A stretch of 64,000 bases of DNA from a virus (lineage: Duplodnaviria > Caudoviricetes). Where the stretch lies: the IMG/VR virus record IMGVR_UViG_3300030330_000562, positions 1 through 64,000 of that record. One strand, written 5' to 3'. Position numbers and translations under genes: made by a program. Below are positions 3,917 through 64,000 of the stretch, piece by piece (the first letter of the stretch is position 1; each line of letters starts with the position of its first letter). The notes below the pieces were generated by a model. It was not told the DNA's origin. It did no database searches and was given only the letters and a program-made list of their open reading frames with translations.

Positions 3917-3963
3917 TAAGGCTACTCAGCTTCGGCTGACCCCAACATAAAAAGGAGAAAAAT
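3917..3963 (+). promoter_or_regulatory. Scaffold gene leader with C(UUCG)G hairpin and Shine-Dalgarno
   Basis: TCAGC-TTCG-GCTGA at 3926-3939, AAGGAG before ATG; identical at 61848-61894 although the flanking genes differ. Confidence 0.7.
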
Positions 3964-4869
3964 ATGCCTGAACTAACAGCAGTAGAAAAACCAAAAACAG
4001 CAGGGTTTGTTGATAGAGGTTACAACTACGAGAAAAAGCGTAAGCGAATGGAAGCCGAAGAAGAGGAGATTCGTAAACTTGAAGCTGAAGCACGTGGAGA
4101 AACAACAACCAACGAAGAACAGCAACCAGAAGAAGAAGCTCCCGAAGAAAAAAAGGCCGATACAGAAGTTAAAGAAGAAACGCTATCTGCTGAAGAAAAA
4201 TCGTTTAAGAAACGCTATGGTGATTTAAGACGCCATATGCAAGAAAAAGAAAAGGAGTGGGACGAGAAGTTTCAAGCCTTTGAAGAACGATTAAAGAAAG
4301 AGGCTATTGTTCCACCTAAGTCTGATGAAGATATAGAAGAGTGGTCTAAAGAGTATCCAGATGTGGCAGGTATTGTAGAAACTATTGCTGCAAAGATAGC
4401 TCAAAAGAAGTTTGATGAAGCTAATCAAGAACTAAAAGACTTGAAGAAAGTACAATCAGAAGCTCAAAGAGCTAAAGCAGAAAGTACAATACGTAAATCA
4501 CATGAGGACTTTGATGATCTACGTGCATCAGATGAGTTTCATAACTGGGTTGATGAACAACCTAAGTGGGTGCAAGATGCACTGTATGAGAACTCAGATG
4601 ATCCAGCTTCTGTAGTTCGTGTTATAGATCTTTATAAAGTAGATAAAGGTCTCACAAAAACTGCAAAGAAAGCAAAAGCAAAAGATGCAGCTTCTACTGT
4701 AACTAAACGTAGTAAAACAGAGATAGATGTAGAAGATGCAAATGACGTAATTCGTGAGTCAGAGGTTGCTAAAATGTCCGACAAGGAGTTTGAAGCAAAT
4801 TCTGATGATATTAACAAAGCTATCCGTTCGGGTAAGTTTGTTTACGATATATCTGGTAAAGCCAGATAA
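3964..4869 (+). CDS. Capsid scaffolding protein
   Basis: Acidic/charged coiled-coil protein directly upstream of major capsid; homolog at 61895-62794. Confidence 0.8.
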   Translation: MPELTAVEKPKTAGFVDRGYNYEKKRKRMEAEEEEIRKLEAEARGETTTNEEQQPEEEAPEEKKADTEVKEETLSAEEKSFKKRYGDLRRHMQEKEKEWDEKFQAFEERLKKEAIVPPKSDEDIEEWSKEYPDVAGIVETIAAKIAQKKFDEANQELKDLKKVQSEAQRAKAESTIRKSHEDFDDLRASDEFHNWVDEQPKWVQDALYENSDDPASVVRVIDLYKVDKGLTKTAKKAKAKDAASTVTKRSKTEIDVEDANDVIRESEVAKMSDKEFEANSDDINKAIRSGKFVYDISGKAR

Positions 4870-4872
4870 CTG

Positions 4873-4900
4873 TTGACAAATTAAAATTCAGCAGTATAAC
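4873..4900 (+). promoter_or_regulatory. Sigma70-type promoter for capsid gene
   Basis: TTGACA-16nt-TATAAC; conserved at 62800-62827 with substitutions only in the spacer. Confidence 0.7.
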
Positions 4901-4903
4901 TAT

Positions 4904-5107
4904 GGGTATGTTGACAAAAGCCTCTTTTTGACTACCTTTTGTCGCACCCAAATCTACAAAAAGTCTAAACTAAGAAGAACTACCTGGACAAGTATAGGCC
5001 CAGTGGTATTAGGTAGCGCAACCTAATATTAACTGCACCCTAGAAAACGTACAGCCCCTTTTAGATGTTTAAGCTTAATTCAAGCCAAATATCAGGAGGA
5101 TTTAATT
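4904..5107 (+). ncRNA. Structured cis-regulatory 5' leader of the major capsid gene (putative)
   Basis: ~200-nt non-coding leader nearly identical to 62831-63034; stem GACAAAAG/CTTTTGTC; stem 5005-5030 with compensatory changes between the copies. Confidence 0.6.
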
Positions 5108-6181
5108 ATGGCTTTTCAAACCGCATCGGGTTACGGTAATTTACCTAATGGTAATTTTAGTCCCGTAATCTATTCCAAGAAGGTACAGCTTGCGTTCCGT
5201 AAAGCTGCTACCGTGGGGGATATCACCAATTCAGATTACTTTGGTGAAATTGCCTCACAAGGCGACACAGTTCGCATAATCAAAGAACCTGAAATCTCAG
5301 TTCAAGCTTATGCACGTGGCACAACAGTCACAGCACAAGATCTTGACGATGAAGATTTTAATCTAGTAGTGGATAAAGCTAACTACTTTGCGTTCAAAAT
5401 GGACGATATCGAAGAAGCTCATTCACACGTAAACTTCATGGATCTTGCAACAGATCGTGCAGCTTACAGACTAGCTGATCAATACGACCAAGAAGTTCTT
5501 GGTTACTTGTCAGGTTTTAAGCAATCTTCTCTGCATGCACAAGCAGACACAGTTAATGACAGTGTAAACGGTTCAAAAGCTGTGACTACCGCAGGTTCAG
5601 ACGAATTGCTTACAAGCATGAAGCTACGTAAAGATTCATTTGGTAACATTACAACGTCATCTGCAGGGGATCATTCAATTCCTGTAGTGGCACGTTTACC
5701 AGGTGCAACTGCTTTACCAACAGCTACAGTTTCACCTGCAATGATTATTGCAAGAATGAAACGATTGCTTGATCAACAACAAGTTGATACACAAGGACGT
5801 TGGCTCGTAATTGACCCAGTGTTCATGGAAATCTTATCAGACGAAGATAGCCGCTTCATGAATGGAGACTACGGTGAGTCTGGTGGACTTCGTAACGGTC
5901 TTGTAATCAACAACTTTCACGGCTTCCGTATGTACGTGTCCTCAAACCTACCTGCTGTAGGTACAGGCCCAGGTACATCAGGATCAGCAAACCAAAATGC
6001 TAACTTTGGTGTGATTGTTGCTGGACATGATTCTGCTGTAGCAACTGCAGAGCAGATCAACAAGACAGAAACATATCGTGACCCTGACAGCTTTGCTGAC
6101 ATTGTCCGTGGTATGCATCTATATGGCAGAAAGATTCTTCGTCCAGAAGCAATCTGTACTGCTAAATACAACGCAGCGTAA
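5108..6181 (+). CDS. Major capsid protein (N4-gp56/P22-coat-like HK97 fold)
   Basis: 357 aa; motifs GDTVRI, YFAFKMDDIE, GRWLVIDP, GFRMYVSSNLP, FADIVRGMHLYGRKIL; strong SD AGGAGG. Confidence 0.92.
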   Translation: MAFQTASGYGNLPNGNFSPVIYSKKVQLAFRKAATVGDITNSDYFGEIASQGDTVRIIKEPEISVQAYARGTTVTAQDLDDEDFNLVVDKANYFAFKMDDIEEAHSHVNFMDLATDRAAYRLADQYDQEVLGYLSGFKQSSLHAQADTVNDSVNGSKAVTTAGSDELLTSMKLRKDSFGNITTSSAGDHSIPVVARLPGATALPTATVSPAMIIARMKRLLDQQQVDTQGRWLVIDPVFMEILSDEDSRFMNGDYGESGGLRNGLVINNFHGFRMYVSSNLPAVGTGPGTSGSANQNANFGVIVAGHDSAVATAEQINKTETYRDPDSFADIVRGMHLYGRKILRPEAICTAKYNAA

Positions 6182-6197
6182 GAAGGGAGATTGAACA

Positions 6198-6734
6198 ATG
6201 GCTACTATTTCAATGAGCACGAACTCAGCCTCTACTTCCAACAATGGCGGTACTGGCAACAAGCAGCTTCGTGGCAGCTTAGTTACTTTACAAAATGATA
6301 TAGATCTTGCAGATGCTATATTACAAAACGGTGGTACTGCACTAGCAGCCAATGATATCATTGAGGCTATTGCTGTTCCTGCCAACACTTTGATACTACA
6401 TGCAGGTTTTGAAGTTGTAACTGCAATGGCAGGTACTACTACAGACTCTTCAATTCACGTTGGTATCACAGGAACAGACGTAGACATTTTTGCTACGGCA
6501 TTTGACTTAGATGGTGCATCAGTAGGAGATCACACTCCTGCTATTACATCTTCAGGTGTATGTTCTAACTTACCAGTGTTTACTGCATCAGCAGACACTA
6601 TTGACGTAGAAATTCATGCGTCAGGTGGAACTATAACTGGTGGTATTATTCGTGTATACGCTGTATGCGTAATGATGGATGACATAACACAGTCTACATC
6701 TGCTAATGAAGTAGATCGTGATCTACTAGCATAA
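6198..6734 (+). CDS. Putative capsid decoration/minor head protein
   Basis: Beta-rich 178-aa ORF immediately after MCP, before a terminator; assignment positional. Confidence 0.5.
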   Translation: MATISMSTNSASTSNNGGTGNKQLRGSLVTLQNDIDLADAILQNGGTALAANDIIEAIAVPANTLILHAGFEVVTAMAGTTTDSSIHVGITGTDVDIFATAFDLDGASVGDHTPAITSSGVCSNLPVFTASADTIDVEIHASGGTITGGIIRVYAVCVMMDDITQSTSANEVDRDLLA

Positions 6735-6743
6735 AGCAACTTT

Positions 6744-6769
6744 AGGGGCTGACTTAGGTTGGCCCCTTT
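6744..6769 (+). terminator. Intrinsic terminator-like hairpin after head genes
   Basis: AGGGGCTGAC-TTAG-GTTGGCCCCT followed by a short T run. Confidence 0.6.
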
Positions 6770-9473: not shown

Positions 9474-12119
9474 ATGGGTAATACATACACGAGACAATCT
9501 AGTTTTACAGACGGTGATGTTATTACTGCCGATCTGTTTAACAACGAATATGATCAACTTTTAGCTGCCTTTGCAGCAAGCACAGGACACACCCACGATG
9601 GCACTGCTGCAGAAGGTGGTCCTATTACTAAACTGTTAGGCACAGGTATTACCATTGGTGATGGCACAGCAGGTACAGATATTACTGTAACCTTTGATGG
9701 TGAGACTAATGATGGTGAACTTAAATGGATGGAAGATGAGGACTACTTTGAGTTCTCTGATGATATTCTTATAGCATCTGATGAAAAGATACAGTTTCGT
9801 GACACAGCTATATTTATAAACTCCAGTGCTGATGGTCAACTTGATCTTGTTGCAGATACAGAAATACAGATTGCTGCTACTACTGTCGATATAAATGGTA
9901 ACGTAGATGTGTCAGGAACACTTACCGTTGCAGGTGCTGTAGACTTTGGTGATGCTGCTTTATCAAATGTAGGTGCAGTACAGCTAGATAGTATTTCAGG
10001 TGATGCTGACTCTAACACAAGTATAGCTTTCAGTGGCTCTGATGTAATTACAGTTACTGCAGGTGGTGAGACACAGGTAACATTTAATAACGGATCAATA
10101 CTTCCTACAACAGATGACGATGTAGACTTAGGCTCTAGCACCTTTGAGTTTAAGGATGGCTTTTTTGATGGTACTCTTCACGCAGATGCAATAAATTTTA
10201 ACGGTACAGCTATAAGTGCAACTGCTGCTGAACTTAACATTATGGATGGTGTAACTGCCACCACTGCAGAGATAAATACTTTAGATGGTATTACAGCAGT
10301 GGTAGGAGAACTTAACGCTCTTGACTTAGGTTCTACAGGCACAGGTACAGCTATTAACTCCAAAGCAGTTGTGTTAGATGCTAACAAAGATTTTACAGGT
10401 ATAAGAAATCTTACACTTGCAGGTGATCTCACCATCAGTGGTGATGACCTAACTATGGGTACAAATACTGCAGGACATCTTCTTATTGCAGACGGTACAA
10501 ACTTTAACCCTACGGCTGTGGGTGATTTATCTGAGATTAGTACTGTAGCTAATGATGACGTATTTCTTGCTGTAGATACATCTGGTGGTGGTCTTAAAAA
10601 GATCACACGTAGCACTATAGTTTCTGGTCTTGCTGTTGGTGGCGTTGCTTTATCTAATGTGGTAGAAGATACTACACCACAACTAGGTGGTGATCTAGAT
10701 GTAAATGGTAACGGTATTGTTTCTACATCTAATGGTAATATTGCACTAACACCAAATGGTTCAGGTGTTGTTAGAATAGATGGTTCTAACGGTATTGATA
10801 TGCAGTCAGGTGCTATCTCTATTAAAAACTCTGGAGCACAATCATATGTTAGATTTTACTGTGAGGCTTCTAACGCACACTATGCTCAATTGCAAGCTCC
10901 TGCTCACTCAGCATTTAGTGGAAACATAACACTAACATTACCTGCTACCACAGATACTTTAGTAGGTAAAACTACAACAGACACTCTAACAAATAAAACA
11001 CTTACAGATCCTGTGATAACAAATATAACAGGCTCTACAATAACTCTAGACTCTGCAGGAGATATTACTCTTGACGCTGATGGTGCAGACGTTCTGTTAA
11101 AAGATGGTGGCACAACTTATGGTGGACTCACTAACAGCAGTGGAGAACTTGTTATAAAATCAGGCACTACATCTGCTATGACATTCAGTGGTGCTAACGT
11201 AACAATAGAAGGTAACTTAACTGTATCAGGCACAACCACTACAGTAAACTCTACCACTGTAACTCTTAACGATCATAATATTGTTCTTGACAGTAACAAC
11301 AGCACATCTGCTGTAGTCAACGGTGCAGGTATTACAATAGAGGGTGGTAGTGGTGACGATGCTACATTTACCTACAATACTACAGGTCCAAAGTTTGAGT
11401 TAAAGTTAGGTTCTAATCACGAAGACTTACAAGTAGATCAACTTATTGCCGCATCTTTAGATATTAGTGGTGACATTGATGTAGACGGCACAGCTAACTT
11501 AGATGTTGTTGATATTGATGGTGCTGTTGACATGGCATCTACTCTAGCTGTTGGTGGTGTAGTTACAGCCAACGCAGGTGTAGTTGTAGATAATATTACT
11601 ATTGACGGAACAGAAATAGATTTATCATCAGGAGACTTGACAGTAGACGTTGCAGGTGATATAATACTTGATGCAGACGGTGGTGACTTTAAGTTTCAAG
11701 ACGGTGGAACTGAGGTACTTAGAATCACTAACTCTTCTAGTGATGTAATTATCAGACCTGTTGTAGATGCTAAAGATCTTATCTTTCAACAAAGAGATGG
11801 AACAGAGGTAGCTAGGATTGAAGACAATGGTACGTTCAATGTTGTCACAGATAAACTAGCAATAAACGGAACTGCTGTAACTTCTACTGCTGCAGAGTTA
11901 AATATACTTGACGGTGCTACAGCAACTGCATCGGAATTAAATTTACTAGATGGTGATACCTCTGTTGGTAGTTCAATAACGTTAGCAGATGCTGACGGTT
12001 TTATAGTAAATGATAATGGCACAATGAAAACTATTCCTGCATCAGATGTAAAAACGTATGCTGCAGGTAGTGCTGCCACTAAAGGATTTGCCATTGCTAT
12101 GGCAATAGTATTTGGATAG
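9474..12119 (+). CDS. Tail fibre protein
   Basis: 881 aa Gly/Thr/Asp-rich; internal repeats NGTA.SATAAELNI.DG and GDI.LDADG; N-terminal GHTHDG motif. Confidence 0.8.
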   Translation: MGNTYTRQSSFTDGDVITADLFNNEYDQLLAAFAASTGHTHDGTAAEGGPITKLLGTGITIGDGTAGTDITVTFDGETNDGELKWMEDEDYFEFSDDILIASDEKIQFRDTAIFINSSADGQLDLVADTEIQIAATTVDINGNVDVSGTLTVAGAVDFGDAALSNVGAVQLDSISGDADSNTSIAFSGSDVITVTAGGETQVTFNNGSILPTTDDDVDLGSSTFEFKDGFFDGTLHADAINFNGTAISATAAELNIMDGVTATTAEINTLDGITAVVGELNALDLGSTGTGTAINSKAVVLDANKDFTGIRNLTLAGDLTISGDDLTMGTNTAGHLLIADGTNFNPTAVGDLSEISTVANDDVFLAVDTSGGGLKKITRSTIVSGLAVGGVALSNVVEDTTPQLGGDLDVNGNGIVSTSNGNIALTPNGSGVVRIDGSNGIDMQSGAISIKNSGAQSYVRFYCEASNAHYAQLQAPAHSAFSGNITLTLPATTDTLVGKTTTDTLTNKTLTDPVITNITGSTITLDSAGDITLDADGADVLLKDGGTTYGGLTNSSGELVIKSGTTSAMTFSGANVTIEGNLTVSGTTTTVNSTTVTLNDHNIVLDSNNSTSAVVNGAGITIEGGSGDDATFTYNTTGPKFELKLGSNHEDLQVDQLIAASLDISGDIDVDGTANLDVVDIDGAVDMASTLAVGGVVTANAGVVVDNITIDGTEIDLSSGDLTVDVAGDIILDADGGDFKFQDGGTEVLRITNSSSDVIIRPVVDAKDLIFQQRDGTEVARIEDNGTFNVVTDKLAINGTAVTSTAAELNILDGATATASELNLLDGDTSVGSSITLADADGFIVNDNGTMKTIPASDVKTYAAGSAATKGFAIAMAIVFG

Positions 12120-12133
12120 AAAGGTAAAAGCAA

Positions 12134-12496
12134 ATGGCAACCCCAAATATAATTAATGTAGCAACTATTACTCCAAAGGTAGCAGTTGGTGCGGTGACAA
12201 CAAGTAGAGCAGACATCGTTGATGTACCTGCAGAAAACTGTGCAAAGATAAACACGTTAATGATATCAAACATAGATGGTACAAATGCTGCTGATATTAC
12301 CGTTGAGGTAAGTGTAGATAACGGATCAAACTATGTTAAGATAGCTAACACAATATCTGTACCTGCTGACGCAACTCTAGTTGTTGTAGGTAAAGACAAC
12401 GGATTTTATTTAGACGAAACAGATCTACTTGCTGTTACAGCTTCTGCTAACAGTGATCTAACATACTTGGTTAGTTACGAACTTCTAGTAGACTAA
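12134..12496 (+). CDS. Tail-associated hypothetical protein
   Basis: 120-aa beta-rich ORF within tail module. Confidence 0.6.
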   Translation: MATPNIINVATITPKVAVGAVTTSRADIVDVPAENCAKINTLMISNIDGTNAADITVEVSVDNGSNYVKIANTISVPADATLVVVGKDNGFYLDETDLLAVTASANSDLTYLVSYELLVD

Positions 12497-61847: not shown

Positions 61848-61894
61848 TAAGGCTACTCAGCTTCGGCTGACCCCAACATAAAAAGGAGAAAAAT

Positions 61895-62794: not shown

Positions 62795-62830
62795 AACTGT
62801 TGACAAATTAATTTTCAGCAGTATAACTAT

Positions 62831-63034
62831 GGGTATGTTGACAAAAGCCTCTTTTTGACTACCTTTTGTCGCACCCAAATTCATAAAAAGTCTAAACTAA
62901 GAAGAACTACCTGGACAAGTATAGGCCCAGTGGTATTTGCTAGCGCAAGTAAGTATTAACTGCACCCTAGAAAACGTACAGCCCCTTTTAGATGTTTAAG
63001 CTTAATTCAAGCCAAATATCAGGAGGATTTTATC
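62831..63034 (+). ncRNA. Structured capsid-gene leader, allele B (putative)
   Basis: Homolog of 4904-5107; promoter TTGACA/TATAAC at 62800-62827. Confidence 0.6.
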
Positions 63035-64000
63035 ATGGCTTTTACAACCGCAGGAGGATACGGTAACTTACCTAACGGTAATTTTTCCAGTGTCATATAC
63101 TCCAAAAAAGTACAGCTTGCATTTCGCAAGAGTACAGTAGTCGGTGATATCACTAATTCAGATTATTTTGGGGAGATTGCTGCCCAAGGTGATACAGTGA
63201 AAATCATCAAAGAACCTGAAATCTCAGTAAGCGCATACGCTCGTGGGACTCAGGTAAATGCACAAGATCTAGACGATGAGGATTTCTCTCTAGTCGTTGA
63301 CAAAGCAAACTACTATGCTTTTAAAATTGACGACATTGAAGAAGCTCACTCACACGTCAACTTCATGGATCTTGCTACCAACCGTGCAGCATATCGTTTA
63401 GCTGATCAGCATGACCAAGAAGTACTTGGTTATCTATCAGGTTTTAAACAGTCTGCATTACATACCGATGCTGATACAGTCAATGACCAAGTAAATGGTA
63501 CAAAAGCTGTAGCAAGCGCAGGTTCAGACGAACTGCTTTCTTCAATGAAACTGAAGAAAGGTGACTTCGGTAACATCACAACAACTTCTGCAGGAGATCA
63601 CTCAATTCCTGTAGCAGCACGTCTACCAGGTGCAACTGCGTTGCCAACAGCAACTGTTTCCCCTGCGATGATTATAAATCGTATGAAACGTTTGTTGGAC
63701 CAACAACAAGTTGATTCACAAGGCAGATGGCTAGTTGTAGATCCAGTATTTATGGAAATCTTAGCAGATGAGGATTCTCGATTCTTAAATGCTGATTACG
63801 GTGAATCAGGTGCTCTACGCAACGGCCTAGTGCTAAACAACATGCATGGTTTTAGAATGTATGTTTCTTCAAACCTTCCTCACGTAGGTACAGGTTCAGG
63901 AACTTCAGGTTCTGCAAACCAGAATGCTAACTTTGGTGTGATTGTTGCAGGTCATGATTCTGCTGTTGCAACTGCAGAGCAGATCAGTAAGACTGAAACA
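63035..64000 (+). CDS. Major capsid protein, allele B (3'-truncated by window)
   Basis: Manual translation MAFTTAGGYGNLPNGNFSSVIYSKKVQLAFRK... open to the window end; homolog of 5108-6181. Confidence 0.92.
   Translation, partial: MAFTTAGGYGNLPNGNFSSVIYSKKVQLAFRKSTVVGDITNSDYFGEIAAQGDTVKIIKEPEISVSAYARGTQVNAQDLDDEDFSLVVDKANYYAFKIDDIEEAHSHVNFMDLATNRAAYRLADQHDQEVLGYLSGFKQSALHTDADTVNDQVNGTKAVASAGSDELLSSMKLKKGDFGNITTTSAGDHSIPVAARLPGATALPTATVSPAMIINRMKRLLDQQQVDSQGRWLVVDPVFMEILADEDSRFLNADYGESGALRNGLVLNNMHGFRMYVSSNLPHVGTGSGTSGSANQNANFGVIVAGHDSAVATAEQISKTET

Follow-up and report, generated by a model that had tools for sequence, protein, structure and literature searches.

The window, as we call the whole 64,000-nt stretch of DNA analysed here, covers the first 64 kb of an IMG/VR record of 86,433 nt. 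This record holds ~1.5 divergent copies of a podophage genome of about 58 kb (~57.9 kb). The head genes follow in the order terminase, SU10-type portal, large post-portal protein, 301-aa scaffold-like protein (PHROG 13678), a 238-nt spacer and capsid; a 178-aa protein and an SU10-type adaptor are encoded 3′ of the capsid gene. The open reading frame (ORF) behind the spacer encodes the major head protein (PHROG 267 at 1e-63; Pfam Phage_capsid_4), which belongs to the same capsid family as the P22 coat protein according to the Pfam note on the HMO-2011 record. The nearest named phages are Roseobacter phages CRP-9 and CRP-13 and Puniceispirillum phage HMO-2011, and the genome is therefore that of an HMO-2011-type phage.

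The spacer begins with a sigma70-like promoter, and TTGACA-N16-TATAAC is found in the window only in the two spacer copies. Of 69 distinct upstream regions, nearly all have the promoter directly 3′ of the scaffold stop codon, so that the promoter assigned to the leader in a preliminary description of this DNA is conserved in nearly all homologs. The capsid transcript is predicted to start at ~4904–4907. The pair formed by the capsid and 178-aa genes is followed by a terminator-like hairpin (6745–6766), suggesting that the capsid message is short and abundant. The genes upstream of the leader are co-directional with it, and read-through into the leader is possible. No conserved ORF was found in the leader, which contains only short closed ORFs of inconsistent length (median 18 codons). 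A hidden small ORF was rejected, because the ORF lengths are inconsistent and the indels do not come in threes. From its position and sequence, we assign the ~205-nt element as the 5′ untranslated leader of a promoter-driven capsid mRNA in HMO-2011-type podophages. The features of both leaders are listed in Table 1.

The leader copies at 4873–5107 and 62800–63034 are separated by 57,927 nt, and the ~1.5 genome copies in one record account for what had been described as two alleles. Within the spacer (4870–5107) the copies differ at ~12 positions (5%), compared with ~9% for the last 370 nt of the scaffold-like gene and ~25% for the first 390 nt of the capsid gene; the leader is thus less diverged than the flanking coding sequence, as had been noticed. 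The copy differences at 5011–5027 sit in one hairpin, GGTATTAGGT-AGCGCA-ACCTAATATT in one copy versus GGTATTTGCT-AGCGCA-AGTAAGTATT in the other. All 10 of its pairs are kept, with two double changes (A-U to U-A and G-C to C-G) and two one-sided changes to G·U, which bears out the compensatory changes previously proposed for this stem.

Table 1 Features of the scaffold and capsid leaders in the window
Feature	Position	Strand	Sequence, pairing or support
Third motif copy, scaffold-gene leader	3920..3943	+	GG-CUAC-[UCAGC UUCG GCUGA]-CC-CC
Sigma70-like promoter of capsid transcript	4873..4900	+	−35 TTGACA 4873–4878, N16, −10 TATAAC 4895–4900
P1, 5′-terminal hairpin with module A	4904..4949	+	Loop CC 4921–4922 opposite CUAC 4932–4935; inner hairpin 4923–4931
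Outer helix, 5′ strand AAGUC-UAAAC	4961..4970	+	Pairs with 5067–5076; closes rod
P2 5′ strand 4974–4978; module B long strand (A)CUAC 4979–4983; P3 5′ strand 4984–4989	4974..4989	+	Covariation
AGUA 4991–4994; P4 5′ strand AGG 4996–4998; CC 4999–5000	4991..5000	+	Invariant (CC) or ≥90% conserved
P5, variable hairpin	5001..5035	+	Apical loop AGCGCA 5015–5020
Loop CAC 5036–5038; P4 3′ strand CCU 5039–5041; GAAA 5043–5046; P3 3′ strand 5049–5054	5036..5061	+	As partner strands
Module B short strand CC 5055–5056; P2 3′ strand 5057–5061	5036..5061	+	As partner strands
Outer helix, 3′ strand GUUUAAGCUU 5067–5076; P6 option; AAGCC 5082–5086	5067..5086	+	Outer helix covaries
A/U-rich tract; Shine-Dalgarno GGAGGA 5095–5100; capsid start codon 5108–5110	5087..5110	+	Conserved in alignments
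Scaffold-leader motif, second genome copy	61851..61874	+	Same motif
Second, divergent promoter and leader copy	62800..63037	+	95% identical; 87 bits with model R1

Homologs of the leader

A capsid-protein search of IMG/VR returned at least 599 related stretches, from which 80 loci were kept; the scaffold–capsid spacer measures 221–293 nt in nearly all of these. A DNA pattern of the conserved core yielded at least 119 further contigs, divergent members included. The homolog set comprised ~100 distinct leaders from IMG/VR contigs and named phages (65–97% identity), and two covariance models were built, R1 for the core and R2 for the whole leader; R2 aligned 97 leaders. With R1/R2, the leader was detected in CRP-9, CRP-13, CRP-603, CRP-2, HMO-2011, CRP-3, CRP-1 and CRP-345, and was also matched in a freshwater podovirus from Manatee Spring. 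Neither model matched pelagiphages HTVC115P and HTVC033P, Aeromonas phage 1233 or Vibrio phage CHOED, which carry homologous capsid and scaffold genes with spacers of only 16–58 nt. Those leader-bearing phages that have a named host (phages of Roseobacter, SAR116, Rhizobium and Sinorhizobium) all infect Alphaproteobacteria, none of them SAR11. In bacterial and archaeal genomes (596 Gb) the pattern gave at least 120 exact matches; all 80 that were retrieved fail R1, indicating chance matches.

The preliminary description could not assign the leader to a named RNA family, and the Rfam search that it called for agrees: Rfam 15 has no match in the window at the gathering threshold, and at E ≤ 10 on 4700–5300 it returned only SNORD37, DUF2800 and eiav_FSE noise (12–16 bits against thresholds of 40–60). 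We found no described motif in the literature on HMO-2011-type phages or on capsid leaders. The leader is thus a new RNA family, notable for an unusual motif that is repeated and for a loop that might mediate dimerisation, although structured regulatory leaders as such are already known.

Fold of the leader

The proposal that the capsid gene has a structured leader is upheld by ~100 homologs, with double-sided changes in 37 of the 40 modelled pairs in the 97-leader alignment. Across these leaders the 40-pair model is 87.3% paired, compared with 33–47% for slid controls, and its covariation (0.378 versus 0.035–0.077) was reached by none of 500 shuffles. For the 22 pairs of the core in 104 distinct sequences, the values are 87.9% paired versus 31–44% for slid partners and a covariation of 0.31 versus 0.05–0.07, again with no shuffle in 500 as high. 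RNAalifold on the raw MAFFT alignment recovered the 5′ hairpin only, with massive covariation; the remaining helices were found by anchoring on invariant bases and with the covariance models. The folding energy of the single sequence is unremarkable (z = −1.8), and the case for structure therefore rests on comparison and not on thermodynamics. G·U and U·G cells outnumber A·C and C·A cells by 145 to 81 which, together with the lack of a conserved ORF, indicates that the structure is RNA on the + strand. We conclude with high confidence that the leader is a conserved structured RNA.

From 5′ to 3′, the leader consists of a hairpin (P1), a long rod that is closed by an outer helix and contains a loop-E-like AGUA/GAA element, a variable hairpin (P5), an A/U-rich tract and the Shine-Dalgarno sequence; ~27 of its positions are invariant, mostly in loops. 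Positions are given below either as window coordinates or as n, the window coordinate minus 4900. In P1, RNAalifold predicts 10 pairs with 15–38 double-sided changes each, and in the 97-leader alignment helices 1 and 2 are 91–96% paired, with all nine of their pairs covarying. The 5′ stem described earlier (4913–4920/4936–4943) is real, with 19–38 double changes per pair across homologs. The outer helix (n61–70/n167–176) has 10 pairs, 77% of them paired, and a covariation of 0.173 versus 0.099 in shuffles (0/500); its pair G4963–C5074 (G63–C174) becomes A-U in 15 sequences. Duplex search located it in 86–89 distinct sequences, in clade-specific variants that include whole-helix replacements. 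Swapping partner strands discriminated weakly (cognate −6.9, foreign −6.2 and shuffled −3.8 kcal/mol) because the core of this helix is conserved.

Inside the rod, P2 (n74–78/n157–161) is 85–87% paired and P3 (n84–89/n149–154) 87%. The P3 pair G4986–C5052 (G86–C152) is replaced by A-U (12–15 sequences), U-A or C-G, and becomes A-U wherever CCUG is CCUA. P4 (n96–98/n139–141) is 93% paired, and one clade has U-A in place of A-U. AGUA 4991–4994 (n91–94) and GAA 5043–5045 (n143–145), each at least 90% conserved, abut P4 and are absent in one group of homologs (L052); by sequence they would fit the loop-E/sarcin-ricin (bulged-G) consensus. P5, the hairpin with the copy differences at 5011–5027, has a base (n101–104/n132–135) and an apical stem above it, with 89% of base pairs and 92% of apical pairs formed, all covarying; the hairpin is shortened to 10–18 nt in a few homologs and is nearly absent in some.

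In 73 of 95 distinct hairpins, P5 is capped by one of three self-complementary tetranucleotides (GGCC, GCGC or GAUC), compared with 4 of 31 and 6 of 37 control hairpins (13–16%). Exchanges among the three preserve self-complementarity, a pattern that, judged from sequence, would fit a loop–loop dimer. In kissing-loop elements the loop is self-complementary and stays so upon change, and the P5 loop behaves in the same way. It shares with HIV-1 DIS, the MoMuLV GACG tetraloops and the phi29 pRNA contacts a GC-rich self-complementary hairpin apex with unpaired flanking purines; unlike these, it comprises only 4 nt, lies in the mRNA leader of a dsDNA phage and has no similarity to pRNA.

Two alternative pairings had been suggested for the leader. 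In one, both copies of GCACCC would compete for the 5′ GGGU. The first copy lies in the 5′ hairpin, as its variable 3′ strand. The second ACCC pairs with GGGU in only 50% of sequences and without covariation, and its CACCC is conserved because it is part of helix P4 and the internal loop; this switch is not retained. The other, a GACU/AGUC pseudoknot, is ambiguous: 75% of the cells pair and one pair covaries (A-U, G-C, U-A), but G30 and A31 belong to the strongly covarying local hairpin, and AGUC has a better-supported, covarying partner in GCUU 5073–5076.

GCUU itself (n173–176) has two possible partners, the upstream AAAG(U) of the outer helix and the downstream AAGC 5082–5085, with which it forms the P6 hairpin. 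P6 is compatible with the data, with covariation not above shuffles. AAGCC 5082–5086 (n182–186), nearly invariant, is 93–100% complementary to GGCUU at the start codon, where GGCU is also constrained by the Met-Ala coding sequence. For AAGCC/GGCUU and for CCUCUU/AGGAGG, an anti-Shine-Dalgarno pairing, the strands are complementary, both sides are invariant and no covariation was found. The bases of these three pairings are nearly invariant, so that covariation is unable to support pairings near the ribosome-binding site. When the covariation-supported helices are enforced, the energy model predicts a hairpin whose loop holds the Shine-Dalgarno sequence and whose stem includes the AUG. We hypothesize that a switch may operate at the capsid ribosome-binding site.

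The CC/CNAC internal loop

One asymmetric internal loop, CC opposite CNAC, is present twice in the capsid leader. Module A, in P1, reads A-G-CC-UC opposite GA-CUAC-CU, and module B, in the rod, reads GA-(A)CUAC-CUG opposite CAG-CC-UC. Both follow a common scheme in which helix H1 closed by R-Y is followed by CNAC versus CC and by helix H2 closed by C-G, with the consensus 5′-G-CC-YC on one strand and 5′-GR-CNAC-C on the other. A third copy forms a small hairpin in front of the scaffold-like gene (ATG 3964); its end lies 8 nt upstream of the Shine-Dalgarno sequence. The same loop with the same flanking pairs occurs at 3922–3941, 4921–4935 and 4979–4983/5055–5056, and covarying helices flank all three. 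The preliminary description was right about the compensatory hairpin and the 5′ stem but missed the rod, the repeated loop and the self-complementary apex.

The scaffold-leader motif is conserved in 78 distinct upstream regions. Parsing with the motif pattern succeeded for 34 regions, which contain 31 hairpin variants; pairs 1–5 form in all of them and covary, through C-G/U-A/G-C exchanges. The end of the motif is 12–21 nt from the scaffold ATG, directly beside the Shine-Dalgarno sequence. No further CC/CNAC copies were found in the 64-kb window, where the motif occurs at the scaffold and capsid leaders only; a match at 6723–6766 was rejected as a copy and is the terminator-like hairpin instead. 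Rhizobium phage RHph_N3_13 and Sinorhizobium phage phiM6, whose capsids are only ~55% identical to that of the window and whose spacers are shorter, have a single compact hairpin with two opposed loop copies before the capsid gene. They retain the loop without the whole rod, which makes the loop the most widely kept element.

C-loops are asymmetric internal loops in hairpin stems whose longer strand starts with C, and they can bind proteins (PMC9516175). All three copies here have this form, with C-N-A-C as the long and CC as the short strand. They differ from C-loops in the two invariant C residues of the short strand, and the likeness is a lead from sequence. The CC/CNAC loop may be a new RNA motif, either protein-binding or tertiary, and its presence in both leaders suggests that the two head-building proteins are under joint control.

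Possible functions of the leader

We propose, at about even confidence, that the CC/CNAC loops are putative sites of one trans-acting factor on the scaffold and capsid mRNAs. The loops would be operators for a single phage or host RNA-binding protein that tunes the translation and/or stability of both messages jointly. On the scaffold mRNA, binding would occlude the adjoining ribosome-binding site; on the capsid mRNA, it would stabilise the rod and outer helix. Competition between the outer helix and P6 for GCUU 5073–5076 could then determine whether AAGCC 5082–5086 is free to pair at the start codon. The 5′-terminal hairpin probably also shields the mRNA from 5′-end-dependent decay. We prefer the operator reading because the same invariant loop is found on the messages of both head-building proteins, because one copy abuts a ribosome-binding site, and because stabilisation or processing needs no invariant unpaired bases.

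Translational operators of phage assembly and replication proteins are known from the MS2 coat protein and from T4 RegA and gp32. Like them, the scaffold motif is a small structured RNA at or beside the ribosome-binding site of a highly expressed phage gene. P22 offers the same kinds of genes, coat and scaffold, and to our knowledge no operator sequence has been defined for the autoregulation of its scaffold. The motif described here is an internal loop instead of a hairpin loop and has three copies on two messages. Ribosomal-protein leaders use internal-loop nucleotides as protein-binding mimics and couple synthesis to assembly. The capsid leader resembles them as a conserved structured 5′ leader with invariant internal-loop nucleotides; unlike them, it belongs to a phage late operon and has no match to an Rfam r-protein leader.

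The P22 scaffolding protein is subject to translational autoregulation (10.1101/2022.12.13.520362) and the capsid of the window belongs to the P22 coat family, which makes assembly-coupled control a natural candidate. In such feedback, the loops on both messages would be recognised by one protein, either an unassembled head protein (scaffold or coat) or a phage RNA-binding protein dedicated to this task, which would thereby set their ratio, and a P5 kissing dimer would lend cooperativity; we regard this specific form as doubtful. The scaffold-like protein was rejected as the obvious factor. It has homologs in the leader-less pelagiphages and Vibrio and Aeromonas phages, and leader-bearing phages do not share a conserved N-terminus (~70 residues) in this protein.

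Several alternatives to an operator have to be weighed. The T7 gene 10 unit consists of the phi10 promoter, a structured leader and the Tphi terminator, and the leader described here might likewise be a passive 5′ stabiliser and translation enhancer of the late mRNA with the highest expression, acting without a dedicated trans-factor. In both systems the major capsid gene is immediately preceded by a leader and served by a strong promoter of its own, and a terminator-like hairpin lies shortly downstream, here at 6745–6766, which would give a unit like that from phi10 to Tphi. The 5′-terminal hairpin begins within a few nucleotides of the predicted start, and the promoter is strong, as is the Shine-Dalgarno sequence that accompanies the A/U-rich tract. 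The two differ in that the leader of the window has a sigma70-like host-type promoter, ~200 nt, a covarying multi-helix fold and invariant loops, and no known sequence similarity to that of T7. Stabiliser hairpins do not need invariant unpaired nucleotides, whereas most of the ~27 invariant positions here are in loops, and the loop is found again in the scaffold leader and in the distant Rhizobium phages; we therefore consider a passive leader unlikely. The loops could also mark RNase III- or RNase E-type cleavage that separates the scaffold and capsid messages, as at the T7 R sites. Long irregular helices with conserved asymmetric loops between late genes would suit such processing, and transcripts of the co-directional upstream genes might read through into the leader. 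The T7 RNase III sites, however, repeat a hairpin and loop at several intercistronic positions, whereas the motif is confined to two leaders in the window. The capsid leader has its own promoter and needs no processing for its 5′ end, and the helices beside the loops are often only 2–5 bp, so that cleavage is an improbable function.

A functional RNA that dimerises or oligomerises through the P5 loop, as part of the leader or after release, with a role in head assembly or message pairing, would explain why the apex of most P5 hairpins is self-complementary far above controls, why this survives apex exchanges and why the purines flanking the centres of the AGCGCA and AGGCCA loops stay unpaired. 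We give this possibility little weight. No terminator or conserved 3′ end was found before the Shine-Dalgarno sequence in the homolog leaders, P5 is a loop-less stub in a few homologs and carries GGCA or GGCG loops in at least ten, and a 4-nt kissing contact is weak. The phi29 pRNA has its own gene and defined ends, and its molecules form a ring on the portal through intermolecular loop pairs, whereas the leader runs into the capsid ribosome-binding site without a terminator, has one self-complementary loop only and is not matched by the Rfam pRNA model. A riboswitch, in which a small molecule bound by the rod and its conserved loops would act on capsid translation by way of the alternative GCUU pairing, would be in keeping with the conserved unpaired nucleotides of the internal loops and with a covarying closing helix that could compete with a downstream hairpin near the ribosome-binding site. 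We judge it highly improbable, given that the loop also forms a minimal hairpin before the scaffold gene and occurs twice per capsid leader, that the gene context is scaffold and capsid only with no metabolic gene and no similarity to Rfam riboswitches, and that the motif was not found in bacterial genomes, where the 80 pattern matches all fail the model. Last, the conservation could reflect DNA, as an operator, a cruciform or a replication or packaging site; as DNA, P5 is an almost perfect palindrome whose centre is itself palindromic, and an inverted repeat spans the promoter. G·U pairs, however, are common and exceed A·C, the internal loops are asymmetric and strand-specific, helix sequences vary freely while complementarity is retained, and the element lies exactly between promoter and ribosome-binding site; a DNA-level role is extremely unlikely.

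HMO-2011-type phages, whose hosts are SAR116 and Roseobacter, make up a very abundant group in ocean viromes, and we know of no work on the control of their late genes. The leader adds a large, strongly covarying RNA family without a match in Rfam 15; over 100 distinct members were collected, IMG/VR contains no fewer than 599 related capsid loci, and the alignment of leaders is a ready seed for a new Rfam family. Its small repeated motif links two proteins whose ratio decides correct head assembly, and the leader is a concrete, mutable RNA element with which assembly-coupled translational control can be studied in dsDNA phages. If the feedback reading is true, the loop would be a sequence-defined operator, in a marine phage group that ranks among the most abundant, for a form of control so far known only phenomenologically from P22.

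About 1.5 genome copies in one record

The 86,433-nt record holds a genome of ~57.9 kb about 1.5 times, with the copies offset by 57,927 nt and their divergence ranging regionally from 5 to 25%. A genuine 86-kb genome is less likely than an assembly, concatemer-like or chimeric, of two strains that occurred together.

Insertions and loop variants in the capsid leader

The loop of P6, the hairpin that lies between the rod (the long-range helix domain) and the Shine–Dalgarno sequence, holds structured insertions of 50–90 nt in 12 homologs (L043, L100, L149, L167, L169, L135, L201 (CRP-13), L102, L134, L130, L192 and L086). In CRP-13 such an insertion lengthens the spacer to 328 nt. In the Manatee Spring podovirus (L203, MW202701), an HNH endonuclease gene separates the scaffold and capsid genes, leaving a spacer of 116 nt, and the end of this ORF is overlapped by the match to R1, the covariance model of the leader core. 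The gene appears to be that of a homing endonuclease inserted in the leader.

In Rhizobium and Sinorhizobium phages, the repeated asymmetric internal loop CC/CNAC occurs twice within one compact hairpin 5′ of the capsid gene: the two loops (AUAC and CUAC) oppose each other about 13 bp apart, a pseudo-symmetric arrangement that would suit a dimeric binder. The clade with L204 (HMO-2011), L206/L207 (CRP-603/CRP-2), L161 and L114 has a variant of module A, the internal loop of the 5′ hairpin, in which UG replaces CC across from CUAC; its −10 box is TAAAAC.

Promoter features and a possible end of the capsid transcript

In the capsid promoter, an inverted repeat, ACUGUUGA...UCAGCAGU, covers both the −35 box and the spacer in the window and in homologs, though not in all of them; its variable outer bases covary in many homologs, as in AUGGUUGAC...GUCAAGCAU. 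The repeat may serve a dimeric DNA-binding protein as its operator, or else form a 3′ hairpin of the scaffold message. A perfect promoter match, TTGACA-17-TATAAT with an extended −10 TG, lies within the ORF at 9474–12119, just upstream of the ORF at 12134–12496; this predicted promoter may be a second late promoter. Last, 3′ of the 178-aa ORF that follows the capsid gene, a GC-rich hairpin (GGGGCUGAC UUAG GUUGGCCCC) is followed by UUUAGCUU. The hairpin resembles a terminator, and a short capsid transcript would end there.

Positions of the features described
Feature	Source	Position
HNH endonuclease gene	L203	15–584
R1 match	L203	560–651
Compact two-loop hairpin	L210 (RHph_N3_13)	578–640
Compact two-loop hairpin	L211 (phiM6)	540–600
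Promoter inverted repeat	window	4870–4896
Terminator-like hairpin	window	6745–6766
Predicted promoter	window	11637–11665
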